From positions 5,955 to 69,954 of the forward strand of contig JADFKB010000002.1 of the NCBI GenBank assembly GCA_022565155.1: a DNA stretch of 64,000 bases, given 5' to 3'. The notes below the pieces were generated by a model. The model ran no database searches. It saw only the letters and a program-made list of their open reading frames with translations, and was not told the DNA's origin. The stretch comes from Chloroflexota bacterium. Its GTDB lineage: Bacteria > Chloroflexota > Dehalococcoidia > DSTF01 > RBG-16-68-14. How positions within the stretch are numbered: the stretch's first letter is position 1; every line of letters begins with the position of its first letter. Positions 29,884 to 45,628 of this stretch are shown one piece after another. Position numbers and translations under genes: made by a program.

Positions 29884-31947
29884 CTAGGTCGCCTGGGTGT
29901 CTCCGCTCTCGATCACCTTCTGGGCGATGTGCGCCGGCACCTCTTCGTAGTGGCTCATCTCCATCGTGTAGTGGGCGCGCCCCTGCGTGATCGAGCGGAG
30001 ATCGGTAGCGTAGCGCTGCACCTCGGCGAGCGGCACCTGGGCTTCGATCACCGTAAGCGCGCCCTGCGGCGTCATCCCCTGCACCTTGCCGCGCTTGCCG
30101 TTCAGGTCGCTCAGCACGTCGCCGGTGTGCGACTCCGGTACCGTGACGCTTATGCGCATGATCGGTTCCAACAGCACAGGGTTGGCGTCTTTGACGCCCT
30201 GCTTCAGCGCCACCGAACCGGCGATCTTAAACGCCATCTCTGACGAGTCGACCGGGTGCTCCTTGCCGTCGAACAGATTCACCTTGACGTCGGTCAAGGG
30301 ATAGCCACCAAGCACGCCTTCCTTCATCGCTTCTGCCACGCCCTTCTCGACGGCTGGGATGTACTGCCTCGGGACGGAGCCGCCGACGATGCTGCTGGAA
30401 AACTCGAAGCCGCTGCCGCGCTCGCGTGGCGCCAGATCAAGGGCGACGCGGGCGTACTGGCCGTGGCCGCCGGACTGCTTCTTGTGGATGACGTCCACTT
30501 TAGCCGTATTGGTCACCGTCACCAGGTAAGGCACCTTAGGCGTGACGAGGTCGACCTCGACGCCGAACTTGCGCTTCATCCGTTCCGCGGCGACTTCGAT
30601 GTGGGTCTCGCCGAGGCCGGAGAGGATCGTCTCGTTGGTATCTGCATCGCGATGCACGCGGATGCTGGGATCTTCATCCCTGATGCGGCTGAGCGCCGCG
30701 CCCATCTTGTCCAGGTCGGCTTTCGTCTTTGGGTAAACGGCTAAACTGTACGACGGTACGGGGCTGGCGATCTCCGGCAGGACAATCGGACGCTCCTTCG
30801 CGCAGAGCGTGTCGCCGGTCGTCGTCTCGGCCAGCTTGGCGACGGCGCCGATGTCGCCCGCCGCGATCGACGGCGTCTGCTCCTGGTCCTTCCCCCTCAG
30901 GTGGAAGAGCTGGCCCAGGCGTTCGTCCGTCCTGCGCTTGGCGTTCCAGACGTGGGAGTCGCCCTTCAGTGAGCCGGATACGACGCGTAGATATGTGAGC
31001 TTACCGACGTAAGGGTCGGCGGTGGTCTTGAATGCGAGCACGGCCAGCGGCCCGCCGGAGTCGGCCGTCAGCGACAGTTCGCCATCGGCGCCGTCCGTCG
31101 CCTGAACTTCGCTTGCATCGCGCGGCGACGGGCTGTAGCGCACTAACGCGTCGAGGGCGCGCGCGATGCCGATGCTCTTCGTCGCGGAGGCGGCCAGGAT
31201 CGGCACGACGCTGCCCGAGATGACCGCCGCGCGCAATGCGGTGGACAGCTCCTCTGCCGTGAGTTCTTCGCCCTCCAGGTACTTGTTGATCAGGTCGTCG
31301 TCAGTCTCAGCGATCGCTTCCACCAATTGCTCGCGATAGCTGGCCACCTCGGCGCCGAGCGATTCAGGGATCTCGCTCGCGTCCTTGCCTTCGCCGAGGA
31401 ACGCCTGCATCTCGAGCAGGTCGATGACGCCCTCGAAATTGTCCTCGGCGCCGATCGGGAGTTGCAACGCAACGCACTGCTTGCCGAAGCTCTCGCGCAG
31501 CTGCTCCACGGCGGCTGTGAAGTCGGCGTTCTCGCGGTCCATGCGATTGATCAGCACCATGCGCGGCAGCGACTCTTCGTCCGCGTAACCCCAGGCGAGG
31601 TCCGTTCCTACTTCGATGCCCGCTACGGCATCGACGATGATTAATGCCCCGTCCGCCGCGCGCATGCCCTCCTTCACCTGTCCTTGAAAATCGGCGTAAC
31701 CGGGCGTGTCGATCAGGTTGATCTTGACTTCGTTCCACTCGCAGGGTATCAGTGAGAGGCTGATGCTGATCTGGCGCTTCACCTCGTCGGGGTCGTAGTC
31801 AGACGTGGTGTTGCCGTCGTCGACCTTGCCAAGCCGGGTGATGGCGCCCGTCGCGAACAGCGCGGCTTCCGAGAGCGACGTCTTGCCGGCGCCGCTATGG
31901 CCCAGCACCACAACGTTGCGAAGCTGATCCGTCTGATACTCTTTCAT
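29884..31947 (-). CDS. elongation factor G paralog (EF-G2-like translational GTPase)
   Basis: GHSGAGKTS P-loop, DTPGYADF, NRMDR and all five EF-G domains. Confidence 0.85.
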   Translation of the reverse strand: MKEYQTDQLRNVVVLGHSGAGKTSLSEAALFATGAITRLGKVDDGNTTSDYDPDEVKRQISISLSLIPCEWNEVKINLIDTPGYADFQGQVKEGMRAADGALIIVDAVAGIEVGTDLAWGYADEESLPRMVLINRMDRENADFTAAVEQLRESFGKQCVALQLPIGAEDNFEGVIDLLEMQAFLGEGKDASEIPESLGAEVASYREQLVEAIAETDDDLINKYLEGEELTAEELSTALRAAVISGSVVPILAASATKSIGIARALDALVRYSPSPRDASEVQATDGADGELSLTADSGGPLAVLAFKTTADPYVGKLTYLRVVSGSLKGDSHVWNAKRRTDERLGQLFHLRGKDQEQTPSIAAGDIGAVAKLAETTTGDTLCAKERPIVLPEIASPVPSYSLAVYPKTKADLDKMGAALSRIRDEDPSIRVHRDADTNETILSGLGETHIEVAAERMKRKFGVEVDLVTPKVPYLVTVTNTAKVDVIHKKQSGGHGQYARVALDLAPRERGSGFEFSSSIVGGSVPRQYIPAVEKGVAEAMKEGVLGGYPLTDVKVNLFDGKEHPVDSSEMAFKIAGSVALKQGVKDANPVLLEPIMRISVTVPESHTGDVLSDLNGKRGKVQGMTPQGALTVIEAQVPLAEVQRYATDLRSITQGRAHYTMEMSHYEEVPAHIAQKVIESGDTQAT

Positions 31948-32178
31948 ACCGCTCCTCATGCTGGAATCGGCGATGTGTGGATATGTGCGACGTGCGCCTG
32001 AGTCTGGCGGCGACCGCATGGGATTGTACCAGTACCACCTGAAGGCAGGCAAGACGGTTTGCCTTGGGATCTGGCGAGGTGCGTAGAGCGTTGTGTAACT
32101 TTCGTAATAGACAGGCGTTTTGCGCTCCTGCTATAGTCGAGCATCTCTCTCACACCACGAGCAGAAAGGCGGGGCAAC

Positions 32179-33921
32179 GTGATGACGATACATACGCGGC
32201 CGGCAACGACGGTCAAGGTTTGCTCTCTGGAGGAGCTGGAACGGGAGGGCAGCAAGGTCGTCGCTGTCGAAGGGCGCGTCGTCCTCGTCCTGCTGGACGA
32301 AGGCGAGCTATACGCCCTGGACAACCGCTGTCCGCACATGGGGTTTCCGCTGCAACGCGGCACGGTCAAGGGCGGCATTCTCACCTGTCACTGGCACCAC
32401 GCCAAGTTCGATCTCGCCGGTGGCTGCACCTTCGACCCGTTCGCCGACGATGTCGTCGCCTTCCACGTGGAGGCGCGCGATGGCGAGGTCTGGCTGGATC
32501 CCCGGCCGATCGAAGAGGAGCGTCGCGCCCACTGGACGCGCAAGCTGCAGGAAGGGCTGGAGCAGAACATACGCCTGGTGCTGGCAAAGAGCGTGATCGG
32601 CCTAAGCGAGCTGGATGCGACGACCGACGCTCTGCGTGACGCCTCGCTCTTTGCGATCCGAAACAGGGCCGCCGGCTGGAGCACCGGCCTCTCGATCCTC
32701 ACCTGCATGGCGAACGTGCTGCCCGGCCTCGACCGCGATGATCAGCCGCGGGCGATCTACCACGGGCTGGTACACGCGGCGCGTTCAACTGCCGGCCAGC
32801 CGCCGAGCTTCGATCTGGAAGCGCTCGAGACGGCTGAAACGAGGCCGGAGCGGTATCTGGAGTGGTTCCGCAGGTTCATCGAAGTGCGCTCCGGCGATGC
32901 GGCTGAGCGGACACTGCGAACGGCGATCCGCATCGGACTGGCGCCGGAAGCGATCGCGGATATGATCTTCGCCGCCTGCACCGACCACCTGTTTCTCGAC
33001 GTTGGCCACTCGCTCGACTTCGCCAACAAGGCGTTCGAGCTGCTCGACCACATCGGCTGGGAGCACGCCGAGGAGGTGCTGCCGTCGCTGATTCCGAACA
33101 TGGTGTCCGCCCAGCGGATGGAGGAGACCTCCGCGTGGCAGCACCCGGTCGATCTCCCTGCGCTGCTGCGAGATGTCTACGATGACCTCGATGGGGCGGT
33201 CGATAGCGCGGGCGATAGCGCCGCTGGTTGGGAGGGGCATGAGGAGCTGGCGGAGACGATCCTGGACGCCGAGCCAGCGGAGACGCTGGAGTCGCTGCTG
33301 GCGCTCGTGCGCCAGGGCGTGCCTCTCACCGAGCTCTCGGCGGCTGTCGCGTACGCTGCCGCGCGCCGGCCGGTGCACTTCCACGTCTCCAACGAGTTCA
33401 ACGACTGGAACACGGTGCATCACACGTTCACGTACACGAACGCCGTCGACCAGGCGATGCGGCGGGCGCCCTCCCGCCTGCTGGCGCGCGGCATCTTCGA
33501 CGGGGCGATGTCGGTCTACCTGGAACGGTTCCTCAACGTGCCGAAGCAGCCGATTCCGACGGCGACAGACGCCGCGCCCAGCCGCGACGAGCTGCTGGCC
33601 GAATTCGACGCGCAGGGCCACGTGGACCAGACCGCCCAGCTCGCCGCCAACGCGCTCGCGGCCGGCCGGCACGAGGAGCTGATCCAAACGCTGGGCCATG
33701 CGCTGCTGCGCGAAGACTCCGGCTTCCACCAGTTCCAAATCTACGAGGCCGGTGTTCGCCAGTACCGCCAGTTCGCCGGCCGGCCGGCGGGGGATCATAT
33801 CCTGATTGGTGTCGCCCGCTTCCTCACTGCCCACGCACCGACGGTGCGCGCCGTCGGCCAGACGTACGATATCGCCGCGCGTCTGCATCGAGGTGAGGCG
33901 CTCCACGGCGAGGACGAGTAG
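32179..33921 (+). CDS. Rieske [2Fe-2S] domain fused to a large (about 470 aa) helical domain of unknown function
   Basis: CPHMGFPL...CHWHHAKF Rieske CxH/CxxH boxes in the first 110 aa. The remainder has no recognisable motif. Confidence 0.7.
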   Translation: MMTIHTRPATTVKVCSLEELEREGSKVVAVEGRVVLVLLDEGELYALDNRCPHMGFPLQRGTVKGGILTCHWHHAKFDLAGGCTFDPFADDVVAFHVEARDGEVWLDPRPIEEERRAHWTRKLQEGLEQNIRLVLAKSVIGLSELDATTDALRDASLFAIRNRAAGWSTGLSILTCMANVLPGLDRDDQPRAIYHGLVHAARSTAGQPPSFDLEALETAETRPERYLEWFRRFIEVRSGDAAERTLRTAIRIGLAPEAIADMIFAACTDHLFLDVGHSLDFANKAFELLDHIGWEHAEEVLPSLIPNMVSAQRMEETSAWQHPVDLPALLRDVYDDLDGAVDSAGDSAAGWEGHEELAETILDAEPAETLESLLALVRQGVPLTELSAAVAYAAARRPVHFHVSNEFNDWNTVHHTFTYTNAVDQAMRRAPSRLLARGIFDGAMSVYLERFLNVPKQPIPTATDAAPSRDELLAEFDAQGHVDQTAQLAANALAAGRHEELIQTLGHALLREDSGFHQFQIYEAGVRQYRQFAGRPAGDHILIGVARFLTAHAPTVRAVGQTYDIAARLHRGEALHGEDE

Positions 33922-34118
33922 CCTCGCTCTGGCTATATGGAAACGGGGACGCGCCGTTGGCGCGGGGTCCGCCTGCGACGGGTAGACTGGGCTCACGGGA
34001 CATTCTCATTATCGATTGGCGTGTCCTGTTCGTTCTCCACTGGCCCGCCGGTTGATCGCTGCCCTTCTTGATGCGTGGAAGAGTTCCCGGCGCTGCTGCA
34101 ACGCGTCGGCATCGGCGG

Positions 34119-35153
34119 CTAGGTCGGCACGCCCTGCCATTCGAGTTTGCCGAGCATCTCGCCGACGAACGGGATCTCGGCGTGGCCGAGCATCTGGCGG
34201 ATGGCGTTGATCTCGCCGGTGTGGAACCAGGTGTGGAGGACGGCGTTGATGAGAACCGTCCCGATGTTGTCTTGCCCCTGCTTGCTGAGAAGGTGTTCCT
34301 CTCGCGTAGTTGAGAGCAGCGTTTCGTCCGCGTCCGTAAGCCAATCGATGCTGGCCTTGGCGTCACGGAGCAGCTTGAGCGCTTCCTGGAGCGCTGGAGG
34401 CGTCGGATCAGCCGCCTCTCCGACGAACCGCACCAGATGCCACGGAAGTTCGCCGTCTTTGGCGTAAGCCGCGACGCTTAGCCAGTGACCGACGATGTGA
34501 CTCACGATCCAAGTGATCGCGTTCATCTCGCCGCCGCCGGTCTTAGCGATGCGACTCTGGGCCTCCTCCGCTGTCAGACCCTCCAGGCCGCGTGCGAACT
34601 CTGAGATGGCGAAGCGGGCCAGGTCATCAGGCCGGTAGCCCGTATCGACTCCGCCACCGCCGCGCCACTCCAGATGCCCTGTGATCTCCCCGACGAAGCC
34701 GATCTCGTCGTGGCCTAAAATCTGGCGGACGGCGTTGATCTCGCCGATGTGGAACCACGTGTGGAGGACAACGCGCATAACGCGTGTACCGACGCTCTCC
34801 CTGCGTAAGTCGTCCGGCGTGCTGGAGAGAAGCGATTCGTCTGCGCTAAGGAGCCAATCAATGCTGGCTTCAGCTTCTTCAAGCGACCTGAGCGCTTCGG
34901 TGAGTAGTAATGGTGTCGAATCAGCCTTTTGTCCGAAGTAGCGGAGCAGAGCGCGATCTGGCTCTTCATCGCCGCCGGCGCTTGCCACGAGAAGCCAGTG
35001 GCCGGCGATGTGGCCGACCGTCCAGGAGATCGCGTTCATCTCGCTGCCGTCCGCTTTCCGCATCCGAGTACGGGCCTCTTCGTCCGTCAGGCCTTCCAGG
35101 CCGCGCCGAAACTCCGCCTGGGTGAACCGAGCAAGTTCGATTGGCTGATACAT
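34119..35153 (-). CDS. tandem DinB_2 (DinB/YfiT-like) domain protein
   Basis: Two internally repeated halves (ISWTVGHIAGHW...HTWFHIGEINAVRQ and ITWIVSHIVGHW...HTWFHTGEINAIRQ). The ATG at 35153 follows an AAGGAGAG RBS. Confidence 0.7.
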   Translation of the reverse strand: MYQPIELARFTQAEFRRGLEGLTDEEARTRMRKADGSEMNAISWTVGHIAGHWLLVASAGGDEEPDRALLRYFGQKADSTPLLLTEALRSLEEAEASIDWLLSADESLLSSTPDDLRRESVGTRVMRVVLHTWFHIGEINAVRQILGHDEIGFVGEITGHLEWRGGGGVDTGYRPDDLARFAISEFARGLEGLTAEEAQSRIAKTGGGEMNAITWIVSHIVGHWLSVAAYAKDGELPWHLVRFVGEAADPTPPALQEALKLLRDAKASIDWLTDADETLLSTTREEHLLSKQGQDNIGTVLINAVLHTWFHTGEINAIRQMLGHAEIPFVGEMLGKLEWQGVPT

Positions 35154-35188
35154 GGCGCTCTCCTTGTTGGCTGGCGCTGACGCGGCGT

Positions 35189-35986
35189 TCAGCGGGTGGA
35201 TTTCACCTTGAGAATAGCCTCGCGCTCCGCGCCTTTCAGGTCTCGGATGGCGTACAGCGTGATTGTAGACGAGATGCCGGCTCTCCGCATCTCTTTCGCG
35301 AGCGCCACCACCCGGCGCTTCGCTCCCGGCCCCGCACGCATGGTGTCTTTCAGCGCCCAGCCGGCTGCTTTGCGAACGAGGTCGTCTGGATCGTGCTGCA
35401 ACGCCTTGCAGAAGCGCAAAGTGACGTCTGCGAACTCGCCGCTCGCCGCGACAGCGCGGGTGAAGGTGATGACGCTGGCGCGACGCTTCCAGCGGTTCGG
35501 CGAGCGGTTCCACCGCGCCAGGAGCGTCAGCGTCTCCTTAGGGTAGCGCTGCAGCAGGTACCATGTGATGCTGGGCTTGCCGGATGCGAAGTCGTCCGTC
35601 ATCGACCACGATGAGAAGTCATCGAGCAACCTGTCCAGCTCATCGAACGTGCTCGGCGTCAGATCCGCGATGCCGGCACGCAGCGCCGCCAGCGCGACGT
35701 GGCCCTCCTCCTCGATGTGACTGCGCAGCAGGAGCCGCGCCAGGGCCAGCCTATCTTCGATGCCTAGCTCCGAGAATGGCTGTCGCCACTGTTCTTGCAG
35801 CTCGCGCCAGGCGGCTTTCGGAACTCCGTAGAACGTGATCGGCTCGCTCTGGGCATGGGCTGGGCCTGTCGCCGCCGGGCTGCCGGCGGCATCTTGCAGC
35901 GCAGCGGCGATCCGCCGGCGCAGCTTGGCGACCGCGGCCGAAGGCCGGCCTGCTCCTGACGCTGAAGGATGTTTTGGTGGTGACAT
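35189..35986 (-). CDS. DNA alkylation repair protein (AlkC/AlkD-like HEAT repeat)
   Basis: Family pattern WALKD and RRAG in the C-terminal half. Start uncertain. Confidence 0.65.
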   Translation of the reverse strand: MSPPKHPSASGAGRPSAAVAKLRRRIAAALQDAAGSPAATGPAHAQSEPITFYGVPKAAWRELQEQWRQPFSELGIEDRLALARLLLRSHIEEEGHVALAALRAGIADLTPSTFDELDRLLDDFSSWSMTDDFASGKPSITWYLLQRYPKETLTLLARWNRSPNRWKRRASVITFTRAVAASGEFADVTLRFCKALQHDPDDLVRKAAGWALKDTMRAGPGAKRRVVALAKEMRRAGISSTITLYAIRDLKGAEREAILKVKSTR

Positions 35987-37606: not shown

Positions 37607-37954
37607 ATGCCAACTGTGAAGATCCTGCCGAAAGGCATCGAATACGAAGCGGCTGACGGGTTGACGATCATGGGCGCCGCCCAGTCGCACGACTACTACT
37701 GGCCGACAACCTGCGGCGGCGAGGGCCGCTGTACCACGTGCGCCTGCCTGGTGGTGAGCGGCATGGAGAACCTGTCGCCGCGAAGCAGGGCGGAAGAGCG
37801 GGTGCTGGTGGAGGAGCGCGGGCAGCAGGCGCTGGAGACGCCGATCCGGCTGGCCTGCCAGGCGCAGGTGCACGGGGACGTCGTGGTGGAGAAGGTTGGT
37901 GTCCGGCTGCCGTTCGCGCTGGGCGGCTCTAGCCTGGGCGACAAAGAGGAGTAA
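37607..37954 (+). CDS. [2Fe-2S] ferredoxin
   Basis: CGGEGRCTTCAC cluster-binding motif and a distal C. Confidence 0.8.
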   Translation: MPTVKILPKGIEYEAADGLTIMGAAQSHDYYWPTTCGGEGRCTTCACLVVSGMENLSPRSRAEERVLVEERGQQALETPIRLACQAQVHGDVVVEKVGVRLPFALGGSSLGDKEE

Positions 37955-37959
37955 CGAGG

Positions 37960-38256
37960 ATGACCTACGTTATCACTGAGCCGTGCATCGACGTGAAGGA
38001 CGCGACCTGTGTCGATGTCTGCCCAGTGGACTGTATCCATACGACCGACGACGACAAGCTGTACTTCATCGACCCGGAGATCTGCATCGACTGCGAAGCG
38101 TGCGTCTTCGTCTGCCCCGTGGATGCGATCTTTTACGAGGAGGATGTGCCGGAGAAGTGGAGCTCTTTCACCGAGATCAATCGCGACTACTTTTCGGCCA
38201 AGACCGATGAAGAGCGCCACACCTTCCGCACACGCACCGAGAGAGACCGAGGATAG
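37960..38256 (+). CDS. [4Fe-4S]/[3Fe-4S] ferredoxin (7Fe type)
   Basis: CIDVKDATCVDVCP and CIDCEACVFVCP motifs. Confidence 0.85.
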   Translation: MTYVITEPCIDVKDATCVDVCPVDCIHTTDDDKLYFIDPEICIDCEACVFVCPVDAIFYEEDVPEKWSSFTEINRDYFSAKTDEERHTFRTRTERDRG

Positions 38257-38359
38257 CGTCGCCGCTTGTGCGAGGTGCGCCTCTCTTGCCGCGTGCCCAG
38301 ATCGCCGATAGACGCTCACGATCCCCACGCTGTTTGCACGACGAGGAGGAGACTAGCCG

Positions 38360-39532
38360 ATGATGGCCTTAGATGACATTCGCGTTCTGGACCTCTCCCG
38401 CCTGGCACCCGGCCCCTTCTGCACGATGATGCTGGGCGATCTGGGCGCCGATATACTCCTCATCGAACCGCCGCCGGACAGCCGCGCCGGCAATGCGCCG
38501 GGAAGCGGACGCGGCGGCGACGCCTACAACGCGCTCGGCCGCAACAAGCGTAGCATCATCCTCAACCTGCGTGACGACGAAGCGCGCGCGGTCTTCTACA
38601 AGCTGGTGGAGACGGCGGACGTGGTGCTGGAAGGCTTTCGGCCCGGCGTCGTCCAGCGGCTGGGCGTCGATTACGAGACGCTGCGGCAGAAGAACCCGCG
38701 CCTGGTCTACTGCTCGCTCTCCGGCTACGGGCAGACAGGGCCGTACGCCGGCCTCGTCGGCCACGATATCAACTACATCTCGATTGGCGGCGCGTTGGGC
38801 ATGATCGGTTGGCCCGGCCAGCCGCCGGCGATCCCGATGAACATCATTGCCGACTTCGCGGCCGGCGGGCTGCACGCCGCCTACGCGATTCTCGCCGCGC
38901 TCCACGCCCGCGACCGTCTCGGTCGCGGGCAGTTCATTGATGCCGCTATGTCGGATGGCGTACTGTACCTGCTGGCGAGCTCTATCAGCGGCTACTACGC
39001 TAGTGGCGGGCGGGTGCCGGAGGCGGGCGCGACGATGCTGAACGGCTCCATCCCTGCCTACAACGTCTACCAGTGCTCCGATGGCGGCTGGATCAGCATC
39101 GGCAGCCTGGAGCCGCACTTCTGGGCCAACCTCTGCCGCGTCATGGGGCGCGAGGATTTCATCCCACATCAGTTTGACGGCGAGAAGCGGGAGGAGATCA
39201 GTGCCCACTTCCGCGCACAGTTCAAATCGAAGACGCGCGACGAGTGGTTCGACGTGCTGCGGGAGACGGACATCTGCGCCGCGCCGGTCTACGGCTTGGA
39301 CGAAGCGTTGAGGGACCCGCACAACCTGGCGCGAGAGATGGTGGTGGAGGTAGAGCATCCGGAGGAGGGCCGCGTGAAGCAAGTCGGCGTCGGTACCAAG
39401 CTCTCGGAGACGCCGGGCAGCGTTCGCGTGCCCGCGCCCGCGCCCGGTCAGCACACGGACGATGTGCTGACCGGGCTGGGGTACGATGCGGAGGCTGTGG
39501 CTTCCCTACGTGAAGCCGGGGCGGTCGCCTAG
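38360..39532 (+). CDS. family III CoA-transferase (CaiB/BaiF; alpha-methylacyl-CoA racemase-like)
   Basis: RVLDLSRLAPGP N-terminal signature and a conserved Asp region. Confidence 0.85.
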   Translation: MMALDDIRVLDLSRLAPGPFCTMMLGDLGADILLIEPPPDSRAGNAPGSGRGGDAYNALGRNKRSIILNLRDDEARAVFYKLVETADVVLEGFRPGVVQRLGVDYETLRQKNPRLVYCSLSGYGQTGPYAGLVGHDINYISIGGALGMIGWPGQPPAIPMNIIADFAAGGLHAAYAILAALHARDRLGRGQFIDAAMSDGVLYLLASSISGYYASGGRVPEAGATMLNGSIPAYNVYQCSDGGWISIGSLEPHFWANLCRVMGREDFIPHQFDGEKREEISAHFRAQFKSKTRDEWFDVLRETDICAAPVYGLDEALRDPHNLAREMVVEVEHPEEGRVKQVGVGTKLSETPGSVRVPAPAPGQHTDDVLTGLGYDAEAVASLREAGAVA

Positions 39533-43852: not shown

Positions 43853-45628
43853 CTAGGGATTGGCCGGCGCTCGGTGCCAGGCGACGTAATCGTCCCAATC
43901 GAACAGGCCGTAGTAGCTGCTGATGCGCAGGAGATCGCTCGTCAACCGCTTTGCCTCGCTCCCGTCGGGACGCACCAGCCAGATCTCAGCGTGGGCACCG
44001 GGCAGCGATGCGCGGTTTTCCCTGAACCCCTCGCCATCCGTGCGCACGAACATGACCAGCTCGCCATCGGCCGACCAGCGGGGGTAGAAGTCCAGGTAGT
44101 CGGGGTCGAAGGTGAGCTGACGAAGGTTGGCGCCGTCGGCGTCTACCACCCAGATCCCTTCTCGCGACCCCTCGATCTTCCCCACATCCAGCCTCGGCAT
44201 CGCATCGCGTCTCGCCTCGGATGCCTGGAAAGCGACGCGCTGGCCGTCGGGGGAGAGGACCGGCCAGGCGTCGGAGCGGGCCGGCCAGTCTAGCGCCTCG
44301 GTCGCGAGCCCGGTCGGGCGGAGCGCCGACTCCGGGTCTTCGGTGATGACCTGCGCTCCCGGCACGCCCACCTCGCCGATGGCGAGGCGCTTGCCCCAGT
44401 AGACATCCCGGCCGCCGCCCAGGGTGAAGACGAACCGCGAGCCATCGGGGAACCAGTCCAGCAGCGCGGGAGAGCGGAGCATGGTGCCATGGTAGAGGGG
44501 CGGGCCGCCTTTCGCGGCGACGGTGAAGAGGGGCAGGCCATCAGCCGACATCGAGGCAGAGAGCGAGGAGGCCTGGAAGGCGACGGCCTGTCCGTCCGGC
44601 GACCACTGGAGCCCGCTCACTCCTACCACACCCAGAACGCTGAGAGGCGTGGAACCCGGGCTCTCCCGCGCTTCGCCCTGCGCCCAGACCTGCTGAATCT
44701 CTTCCACCATCGCAAGCGCCTGTGGGTCGCCGCCATCAGCGTCGATGAGATAGACGCCGTTGTCACGGGGGATCTGGACCGTCTGCAGTTCGCGCTCTGC
44801 CAGAGGAACGGACTCTGGGTAGAAGAACGGGCGTACTCGGGCCAGCGCCAGGCGACGCCCGTCCGGCGACCAGGCCACCTCCGTCGCCCCGAAGCCGTCA
44901 CGCAGGATCTGCTCTGCCTCGCCGTGCGGTTCGGTAACCCACAAGCCGCCGTTCGTAATATACGCGAGTCTGTCGCCGCTGGGCGACCATACGGCGTCCG
45001 GCGCGTCCAGCTCGTGCGCGTCGCTGCCGTCGGGGCGCACGAGCCAAGCCTTCCCTTGCAACTCATCGTCTGTGGCTGAGCGTTTGACGAAGAGGAGCCA
45101 GCGCCCGTCCGGCGACCAGCGCGGCGCCGTTGCGGCGCCGTCATCGGTCAGCCTTCGAGCGGGGCCGGTATCGCCTAGCACCCACAGGTTGCCATCGGTA
45201 CCGACATACGCCAGCCGGTCGCCCGCCGGCAGGGCGAGGGACGCGGGAGCGGCCAGCTCGCCATCGCCCCGCGTGACCAACAGCCCCCAGACGAGCAGGC
45301 CGATGCCTGCGGTCACGACGATTGCCGCGCTGGCCGTAACGACGGGCGAGAGCCAGCCGAAGCTGGCCTTGTGCCACAGGAAGCCGAGCGGGGCGAAGGC
45401 CGTCGTCCACCACGGGCGCTGCTCAGGCTGCCAGCGCGCGGCCTCCTCTCGGCTGCTGACACCGAGCTTGCTGAGGATCTCCGAGACGTGGTACTTGGCG
45501 CCTGAAAGGCTGATGCCGAGGCGCTGGGCGATCTCTTCGTTGGAGAGACCCTGGCGCAGGAGGGCGAGCGCCTCCCACTCGCGCGGCGTGAGGATATCGG
45601 GGTGTGGCGGCCGGCCGCGTCTACTCAT
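43853..45628 (-). CDS. membrane-spanning LuxR-family regulator with extracytoplasmic TolB-like (PD40) beta-propeller
   Basis: N-terminal LuxR HTH (LTPREWEALALLRQGLSNEEIAQRLGISLSGAKYHVSEILSKLGV), one TM helix, then repeated SPDG(R/Q)xxAF propeller blades. Confidence 0.75.
   Translation of the reverse strand: MSRRGRPPHPDILTPREWEALALLRQGLSNEEIAQRLGISLSGAKYHVSEILSKLGVSSREEAARWQPEQRPWWTTAFAPLGFLWHKASFGWLSPVVTASAAIVVTAGIGLLVWGLLVTRGDGELAAPASLALPAGDRLAYVGTDGNLWVLGDTGPARRLTDDGAATAPRWSPDGRWLLFVKRSATDDELQGKAWLVRPDGSDAHELDAPDAVWSPSGDRLAYITNGGLWVTEPHGEAEQILRDGFGATEVAWSPDGRRLALARVRPFFYPESVPLAERELQTVQIPRDNGVYLIDADGGDPQALAMVEEIQQVWAQGEARESPGSTPLSVLGVVGVSGLQWSPDGQAVAFQASSLSASMSADGLPLFTVAAKGGPPLYHGTMLRSPALLDWFPDGSRFVFTLGGGRDVYWGKRLAIGEVGVPGAQVITEDPESALRPTGLATEALDWPARSDAWPVLSPDGQRVAFQASEARRDAMPRLDVGKIEGSREGIWVVDADGANLRQLTFDPDYLDFYPRWSADGELVMFVRTDGEGFRENRASLPGAHAEIWLVRPDGSEAKRLTSDLLRISSYYGLFDWDDYVAWHRAPANP

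Follow-up and report, generated by a model that had tools for sequence, protein, structure and literature searches.

A Rieske protein with a helical domain of predicted BTG13-like fold from a Chloroflexota bacterium and its relatives

To our knowledge, the Rieske-dependent oxygenases described so far all use one catalytic fold. The BTG13/DUF4243 iron dioxygenases (PF14027; BTG13, GedK, PaD, and BruN) date as a recognized group only from 2022, and work on them has centered on the natural-product pathways of fungi; most characterized members are fungal, at least one (OzmD) is bacterial, and we know of none with a fused redox-partner domain. Also known are extracytoplasmic function (ECF) sigma factors that carry a sensing extension at the C terminus and class III cyclases that carry a metallo-sensor domain at the N terminus. 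Here we describe a gene at positions 32179..33921 (+ strand) of a 64,000-nucleotide (nt) stretch of contig JADFKB010000002.1 from a Chloroflexota bacterium of the Dehalococcoidia (the whole stretch is referred to here as the window; GC content, ~64%). In its product, a Rieske [2Fe-2S] domain at the N terminus is joined to a large helical domain, and the protein probably represents a new type of metalloprotein, one reactive toward oxygen or in redox processes. The specific reading that we favor, with a probability that we put at roughly 0.4, is that the Rieske domain feeds electrons to a non-heme-iron center in a domain of BTG13 fold, that this center reacts with O2 or another oxidant, and that its state serves as a signal in relatives in which the module is fused to output domains. 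The domain architecture, the fold similarity, the conservation of residues, and the fusions on which this reading draws are directly supported.

Several described proteins resemble parts of this one. It is like the Rieske oxygenase alpha subunits (NdoB, KshA, and DdmC) in that its N-terminal Rieske domain precedes a larger domain with a proposed mononuclear iron, and by analogy both would activate O2 reductively with electrons from a reductase or ferredoxin. The Rieske-type ferredoxins (BphF, T4moC, CarAc, the NDO/TDO ferredoxins, and NirD) show the same Cys-x-His...Cys-x-x-His spacing and, like the protein described here, have no bc1-type disulfide, but they are stand-alone carriers of ~105 to 115 amino acids, whereas here the domain is always fused to a 466-amino-acid helical domain. 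The DUF4243 enzymes are all-alpha, as is that helical domain, and PaD has 22 helices. Their site, however, consists of four His and a carboxylated Lys (H...H...H...H-x-x-K), where the present family has, three residues after the last His, an essentially invariant Gln; no sequence similarity between the two is detectable, and the present family, with its constant N-terminal Rieske domain, is encoded in bacteria and haloarchaea by a single gene that is not part of a biosynthetic cluster. In its fused relatives, the module occupies the same place as the known sensing domains of ECF sigma factors and cyclases, whereas the window protein has no output domain. We found no report in the literature joining a Rieske domain with DUF4243/BTG13, with ECF sigma extensions, or with cyclase sensor domains.

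The Rieske domain and the fold of the helical domain

The open reading frame (ORF) listed for this gene begins with GTG at 32179 and encodes 580 amino acids. The true start is probably the ATG at 32182, which would give 579 amino acids, because this ATG directly follows the GTG and the homologues are 579 amino acids long; a 579-amino-acid protein, P0001, is 100% identical to the product. The product has a computed mass of ~64 kDa and pI of 5.1 and is predicted to be soluble, and a Kyte-Doolittle profile (19-residue window) revealed no hydrophobic segment (maximum, 1.38). A membrane-protein reading, prompted by low-probability Foldseek matches to major facilitator superfamily transporters, was ruled out by hydropathy.

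Residues 12 to 110 (32212..32508, + strand) form a Rieske domain of the ferredoxin (low-potential) type. Pfam family PF00355 matched residues 12 to 92 at 61.7 bits (cutoff, 20.3), the Rieske beta-sandwich fold was recovered, and the best sequence and fold matches of the domain were soluble Rieske ferredoxins; weak, sub-threshold NCBIfam matches were to ferredoxin subunits of dioxygenases. The sequence-only reading, made before any database was searched, had placed both Rieske boxes in the N-terminal 110 amino acids, and this is where they lie: box 1, C51-P-H53-M-G-F, at 32329..32346 and box 2, C70-H-W-H73-H, at 32386..32400 (both + strand). The predicted ligands of the [2Fe-2S] cluster are C51, H53, C70, and H73; the 16 residues that separate C51-x-H53 from C70-x-x-H73 fit the expected ~16 to 17. 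We counted residue conservation over 248 full-length homologues, and the four ligands are unchanged across this set (C51 and H53 were scored in 247 of 248, the exception being an alignment gap). A motif search of the protein did not find the bc1-type boxes with disulfide cysteines (C-x-H-x-G-C and C-x-C-H), and the domain is therefore assigned to the low-potential ferredoxin/oxygenase type; assignment by disulfide boxes rests on established knowledge of Rieske proteins. No ring-hydroxylating catalytic-domain family in Pfam matched the protein, and a pattern search for the 2-His-1-carboxylate motif ([ED]-x3-D-x2-H-x3-4-H) found no instance, which bears out the earlier statement that no oxygenase catalytic domain is recognizable.

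The remainder of the protein had been described as ~470 amino acids with no assignable motifs. Searches of Pfam, NCBIfam, and PDB sequences with residues 115 to 580 indeed found no match, whether the query was the whole region, three sub-segments, a profile (at E values up to 10), or 39 diverse members. AlphaFold models were obtained for the full protein and for the C-terminal domain alone. Both had a predicted local distance difference test score (pLDDT) of ~82 and 22 helices, with predicted template modeling scores of 0.80 and 0.83, and residues 115 to 580 were all-alpha. A fold comparison of the C-terminal domain, which the sequence-only reading had proposed as a check, led by Foldseek to BTG13-type iron dioxygenases and not to the Rieske oxygenase alpha-subunit fold: the best whole-domain matches were non-heme-iron dioxygenases of the BTG13/PaD/BruN (DUF4243) type, aligned at ~10 to 15% identity. 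The all-alpha build and the ~22 helices of the DUF4243 fold are both present. On these models, the helical domain is predicted to have the BTG13/PaD/BruN fold. The BTG13 structure was released in 2022, later than the AlphaFold2 training cutoff, and so the likeness should not be an echo of a template.

Apparent MgsA_C-like repeats and conserved residues of the helical domain

Following an N-terminal five-helix part delimited by AlphaFold secondary structure (residues 115 to 225; 32521..32853, + strand), the helical domain seems, from profile comparisons, to be built from three repeats related to the C-terminal domain of MgsA/RarA/WRNIP1 (MgsA_C; PF12002). Repeat A spans residues ~226 to 340 (32854..33198, + strand) and contains T-D269-H270...G276-H277-S-L-D280-F-A-N283-K284-A-F-E287. 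Repeat B (residues ~350 to 460; 33226..33558, + strand) contains an invariant loop, R397...F401...N405-E406..D409-W410, followed by H414-H415, and repeat C (residues ~465 to 575; 33571..33903, + strand) contains R-E512-D513-S-G-F516-H517-Q-F-Q520..E523 and A-P-T555-V-R557. Aligned to MgsA_C with hhalign, repeat A (residues 230 to 314) gave an E value of 0.006 over 85 columns, repeat B (351 to 460) gave 0.013 in local mode and 0.037 in global mode (36 and 89 columns, respectively), and repeat C (467 to 568) gave 0.041 over 99 columns, with RED opposite SED and APTVR opposite APKSN. Repeats A and B aligned to each other at 2e-4 in local mode and 0.0017 in global mode (38 and 100 columns). As a negative control, the N-terminal part (115 to 225) showed no similarity to MgsA_C (E value, 0.25; 6 columns), and reversed-profile controls gave E values of 0.09 to 0.66. 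The family differs from MgsA/RarA/WRNIP1 in having three copies of the domain, in lacking the AAA+ ATPase module that accompanies it there, in scoring far below the Pfam threshold for PF12002, and in the gain of a conserved His in each repeat. A search of the PDB with the MgsA_C profile did not reach the DUF4243 chains.

The conserved acidic loops of the repeats (T-D269-H270, S-N405-E406, and R-E512-D513) align with the invariant S-E-D of MgsA_C, and each is followed by a helix with a histidine in its first turn (H277, H414/H415, and H517). These histidines are nearly always retained: H277 in 247 of the 248 homologues, H517 in 244, and a His at either position 414 or position 415, both being possible, in 247. 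Q520 was likewise found in 244 of 248; D280, K284, and E287 were each present in at least 245; and R397, N405, D409, and W410 were present in all 248. Further residues that we class as invariant are D280, N283, K284, E287, E316, W320, R397, N405, D409, W410, and seven arginines. The loop of repeat B had a pLDDT below 50 in the AlphaFold models. Numbered within the C-terminal domain, the three near-invariant His positions are 163, 300/301, and 403, and they are collinear with three of the four DUF4243 ligands; H277, H414/415, and H517 may thus be equivalent in space to those ligands, to judge from the alignments.

A divergent subgroup (P0172 and P0184) has lost H277 and D280 (GVGLALSNK and DGQAVYMPNS) and also has no H517 (GHPYW and GLQHW), while the Rieske ligands are kept where the Rieske domain is present. 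Joint loss of this kind fits an arrangement in which H277, D280, and H517 form one putative site, and the subgroup may be a degenerate paralogue.

Distribution, signaling fusions, and gene neighborhood

Of more than 7,900 relatives returned by a database search, the best 120 are all ~579 amino acids long and 70 to 100% identical to the window protein. When the helical domain alone was searched against 1.84 billion cluster representatives, 1,691 clusters were found, 270 of them with E values below 1e-30. Almost without exception, the helical domain of full-length members begins at residue 105 to 130, directly after the Rieske domain. No complete stand-alone C-terminal domain was found among the relatives; proteins of ~450 amino acids that consist of this domain only are partial ORFs that start with a residue other than Met, are cut inside the domain, or are frameshifted. 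A genome scan, which took up the suggestion that the phylogenetic distribution be traced, placed relatives in at least 596 species of several Chloroflexota classes, haloarchaea, Nostocales, Gemmatimonadota, Actinomycetota, Armatimonadota, and other groups; Planctomycetes and one alphaproteobacterium were added by other searches. Conservation of the architecture across at least 596 species rules out an artifactual fusion of two genes. One Dehalococcoidia genome carries two family copies on the same contig, CBDBDT010000002.1 (L028 and L045). Other chromosome-level assemblies occur once each among the best 80 loci, and the gene may usually be single copy.

About 95% of the family members listed are stand-alone proteins with no output domain. 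The others include two signaling architectures. In the first, a Rieske-helical module precedes a class III cyclase domain in proteins of ~740 amino acids, which form ~26 clusters at 90% identity (P0128 and P0271 to P0297) and are 54 to 88% identical to the reference fusion protein, P0128. The cyclase domain is divergent; judged by eye against the canonical motifs, P0128 appears to have Asp in place of the substrate-specifying Lys and His in place of the transition-state Asn. In the second architecture, an ECF sigma factor (regions 2 and 4) is followed by a linker of ~80 amino acids, the Rieske domain, and the helical domain, for a total of 775 to 870 amino acids (~13 clusters; P0136 and P0390 to P0402). 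Each fusion is a single ORF on a long contig, the cyclase fusion at 6001-8250 of L081 (113-kb contig) and the sigma fusion at 6001-8523 of L082 (123-kb contig). The cyclase fusions (26 of 26) and most sigma fusions retain every key residue; in the sigma group, H277, H517, and Q520 are somewhat relaxed (9 to 10 of 13). To judge from these fusions, the fused lineages evidently use the state of the module as a signal.

In the window, the gene is divergent from an elongation factor G (EF-G)-like gene (29884..32052, - strand) and convergent with a DinB_2 gene (34119..35513, - strand), and because of these orientations it looks monocistronic. A promoter-like site, recognized by pattern match only, precedes the start codon by ~45 nt (32108..32137, + strand; TAGACA and TATAGT separated by 18 nt, with the TG of an extended -10 element); the consensus scan found 2 sites where 0.2 was expected. 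Rfam gave no match in the window, and thus no riboswitch or other RNA element was seen. A 403-amino-acid antisense ORF (32785..33996, - strand) covers most of the gene. Since the product of the + strand is strongly conserved, this ORF is most likely a shadow ORF of the kind common in high-GC DNA.

Two ferredoxin genes had been reported nearby. They are real but not adjacent: a Fer2 gene for a plant-type ferredoxin of 115 amino acids (37607..37954, + strand) and a Fer4 gene for a dicluster ferredoxin of 98 amino acids (37960..38256, + strand) lie 3.7 to 4 kb downstream, behind three minus-strand genes. They were rejected as dedicated partners, as they belong to a separate transcription unit and no ferredoxin cluster appears among the recurrent neighbor clusters. 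The pair lies directly upstream of a family III coenzyme A (CoA)-transferase gene, and this tract (37607-39532, + strand) may be a separate redox-dependent acyl-CoA operon. A minus-strand ORF that overlaps the pair (37696..38328) has no Pfam match and is probably spurious. Among the ORFs annotated between 21.8 and 45.6 kb there is no cytochrome b or c gene, which agrees with the earlier statement that a cytochrome bc partner is missing.

We surveyed the neighbors of the best 80 loci, drawn from many phyla, and found no gene or operon partner conserved across them. Recurrent neighbors were seen only within the Dehalococcoidia (short-chain dehydrogenase/reductase [SDR], luciferase-like, and aldo-keto reductase genes), and the others were heterogeneous; these three families have many paralogues in Dehalococcoidia. 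An SDR gene directly adjoins the homologue in ~10 of the 80 loci, all in Dehalococcoidia and roughly 6 of them independent, whereas a rough calculation gives ~2.4 loci expected by chance.

Some neighboring genes have features of their own. The EF-G-like GTPase has all five EF-G domains. Its translation probably begins near MKEYQ, ~35 codons into the listed ORF, and its gene may be a paralogue and not the main fusA gene. The single product of the DinB_2 gene contains two DinB_2 (DinB superfamily) domains in tandem, and the GTG start listed for this gene is probably too far upstream. At 43853-45628 (- strand), an unusual protein combines an N-terminal LuxR/GerE helix-turn-helix with PD40/WD40-like beta-propeller repeats.

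A proposed metal center and its alternatives

The sequence-only reading had called the protein a candidate new Rieske-dependent redox enzyme or sensor, and the present results support that interpretation. We picture a soluble, stand-alone protein with two probable metal centers. The Rieske cluster (C51, H53, C70, and H73) would take single electrons from a general ferredoxin or reductase and would pass them to the conserved polar center in the C-terminal 22-helix domain, where H277, H414/415, and H517 would bind one non-heme iron, aided by Q520, E523, K284, and E287. This iron would react with O2 or a related oxidant. Because DUF4243 enzymes need no external electrons, yet the Rieske domain is obligatory here, the chemistry may be reductive O2 activation of a monooxygenase, oxidase, or oxidant-reductase kind; by analogy, the obligatory fusion argues for an electron balance unlike that of the DUF4243 hydroquinone dioxygenases, which depend on Fe(II) and O2. 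In the ECF sigma and class III cyclase fusions, the redox or ligand state of the module would be the signal input. Within this scheme, we infer a second metal and the site that binds it, electron transfer between the two centers, reactivity with O2, catalysis, and a substrate.

Several observations weigh against this scheme. PF14027 gave no match at E values up to 10 for the query, its pieces, or the 39 diverse members, and neither sequence nor profile searches of the PDB matched 7y3w, 8z4q, 8yxs, or, for residues 115 to 580, any other chain. No counterpart of the first DUF4243 His ligand was found, H517-x-x-Q520 replaces H-x-x-K, and a motif search found no H-x-x-K in the C-terminal domain. 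The proposed equivalence of the ligands depends on collinear numbering and on weak E values for the repeats (0.006 to 0.04, compared to 0.09 to 0.66 for the controls). Many of the invariant Arg, Asp, and Glu residues may be a structural inheritance from the MgsA_C fold rather than parts of an active site. The gene context points to no substrate, pathway partner, or reductase, and the sigma and cyclase fusions suit a noncatalytic sensor at least as well as an enzyme.

The alternative that survives best, which we regard as possible though somewhat unlikely, is that the module is just such a sensor of redox state, O2, or another oxidant, in which the state of the cluster or metal switches conformation; the stand-alone form would signal through partners, and the fused forms would act as one-component systems. 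Two independent, evolutionarily maintained fusions to signaling outputs, in which the module sits in the typical position of a sensory domain with its conserved residues kept, are what such a sensor would lead one to expect, as is the lack of a conserved metabolic operon around the stand-alone genes. However, ~95% of the listed members have neither an output domain nor a conserved signaling neighbor, Rieske domains are normally electron carriers rather than sensors, the closest folds are those of enzymes, and the SDR gene that directly adjoins ~10 of the 80 loci hints at metabolism.

We consider it distinctly improbable that the protein has no second metal and that the MgsA_C-like repeats are a scaffold for oligomerization or partner binding, leaving electron transfer or redox switching to the Rieske cluster alone. 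Iron enzymes head the whole-domain matches, and three His are conserved at equivalent positions where MgsA_C has none in the hhalign alignments. Moreover, the second His is free to sit at 414 or 415 yet is almost never lost, suggesting selection for a ligand. A heme bound by two invariant histidines ranks below the three-His site. An ordinary Rieske oxygenase alpha subunit, a bc-type Rieske protein, or an artifactual fusion, for which only the presence of a Rieske domain and the weak dioxygenase-ferredoxin matches speak, is scarcely credible and is excluded by motifs (no catalytic-domain family, 2-His-1-carboxylate motif, or bc1 boxes), by the all-alpha fold, by hydropathy with no transmembrane helix, and by conservation of the architecture.

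Returning to the Rieske-fed iron center that we favor, both building blocks are of known kinds, and the novelty lies in their combination, in the apparent triple-repeat construction, and in the signaling fusions. A broader proposal, which we put forward only tentatively and consider rather doubtful, is that the module represents a widespread new O2- or oxidant-reactive class, with a Rieske cluster wired to a three-His iron in a BTG13-like fold, which in bacteria and haloarchaea would work both as a stand-alone enzyme and as the input domain for a new family of one-component ECF sigma factors and cyclases. On that proposal, Rieske-dependent oxygen chemistry would gain a third catalytic scaffold, and the fungal BTG13 dioxygenases would be tied to a prokaryotic ancestor made of MgsA_C-like repeats.

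If the favored reading is correct, the family would add a new architecture to biological oxygen or redox chemistry, and many proteins whose sole annotation at present is "Rieske (2Fe-2S) protein" would acquire a function. A new type of input domain of ECF sigma factors and cyclases would likewise be explained. Because the family is represented in Haloferax and Nostoc, for which genetic systems are established, the proposal should be directly testable. In evolutionary terms, it suggests a route from MgsA_C-like helical repeats to a metal site.
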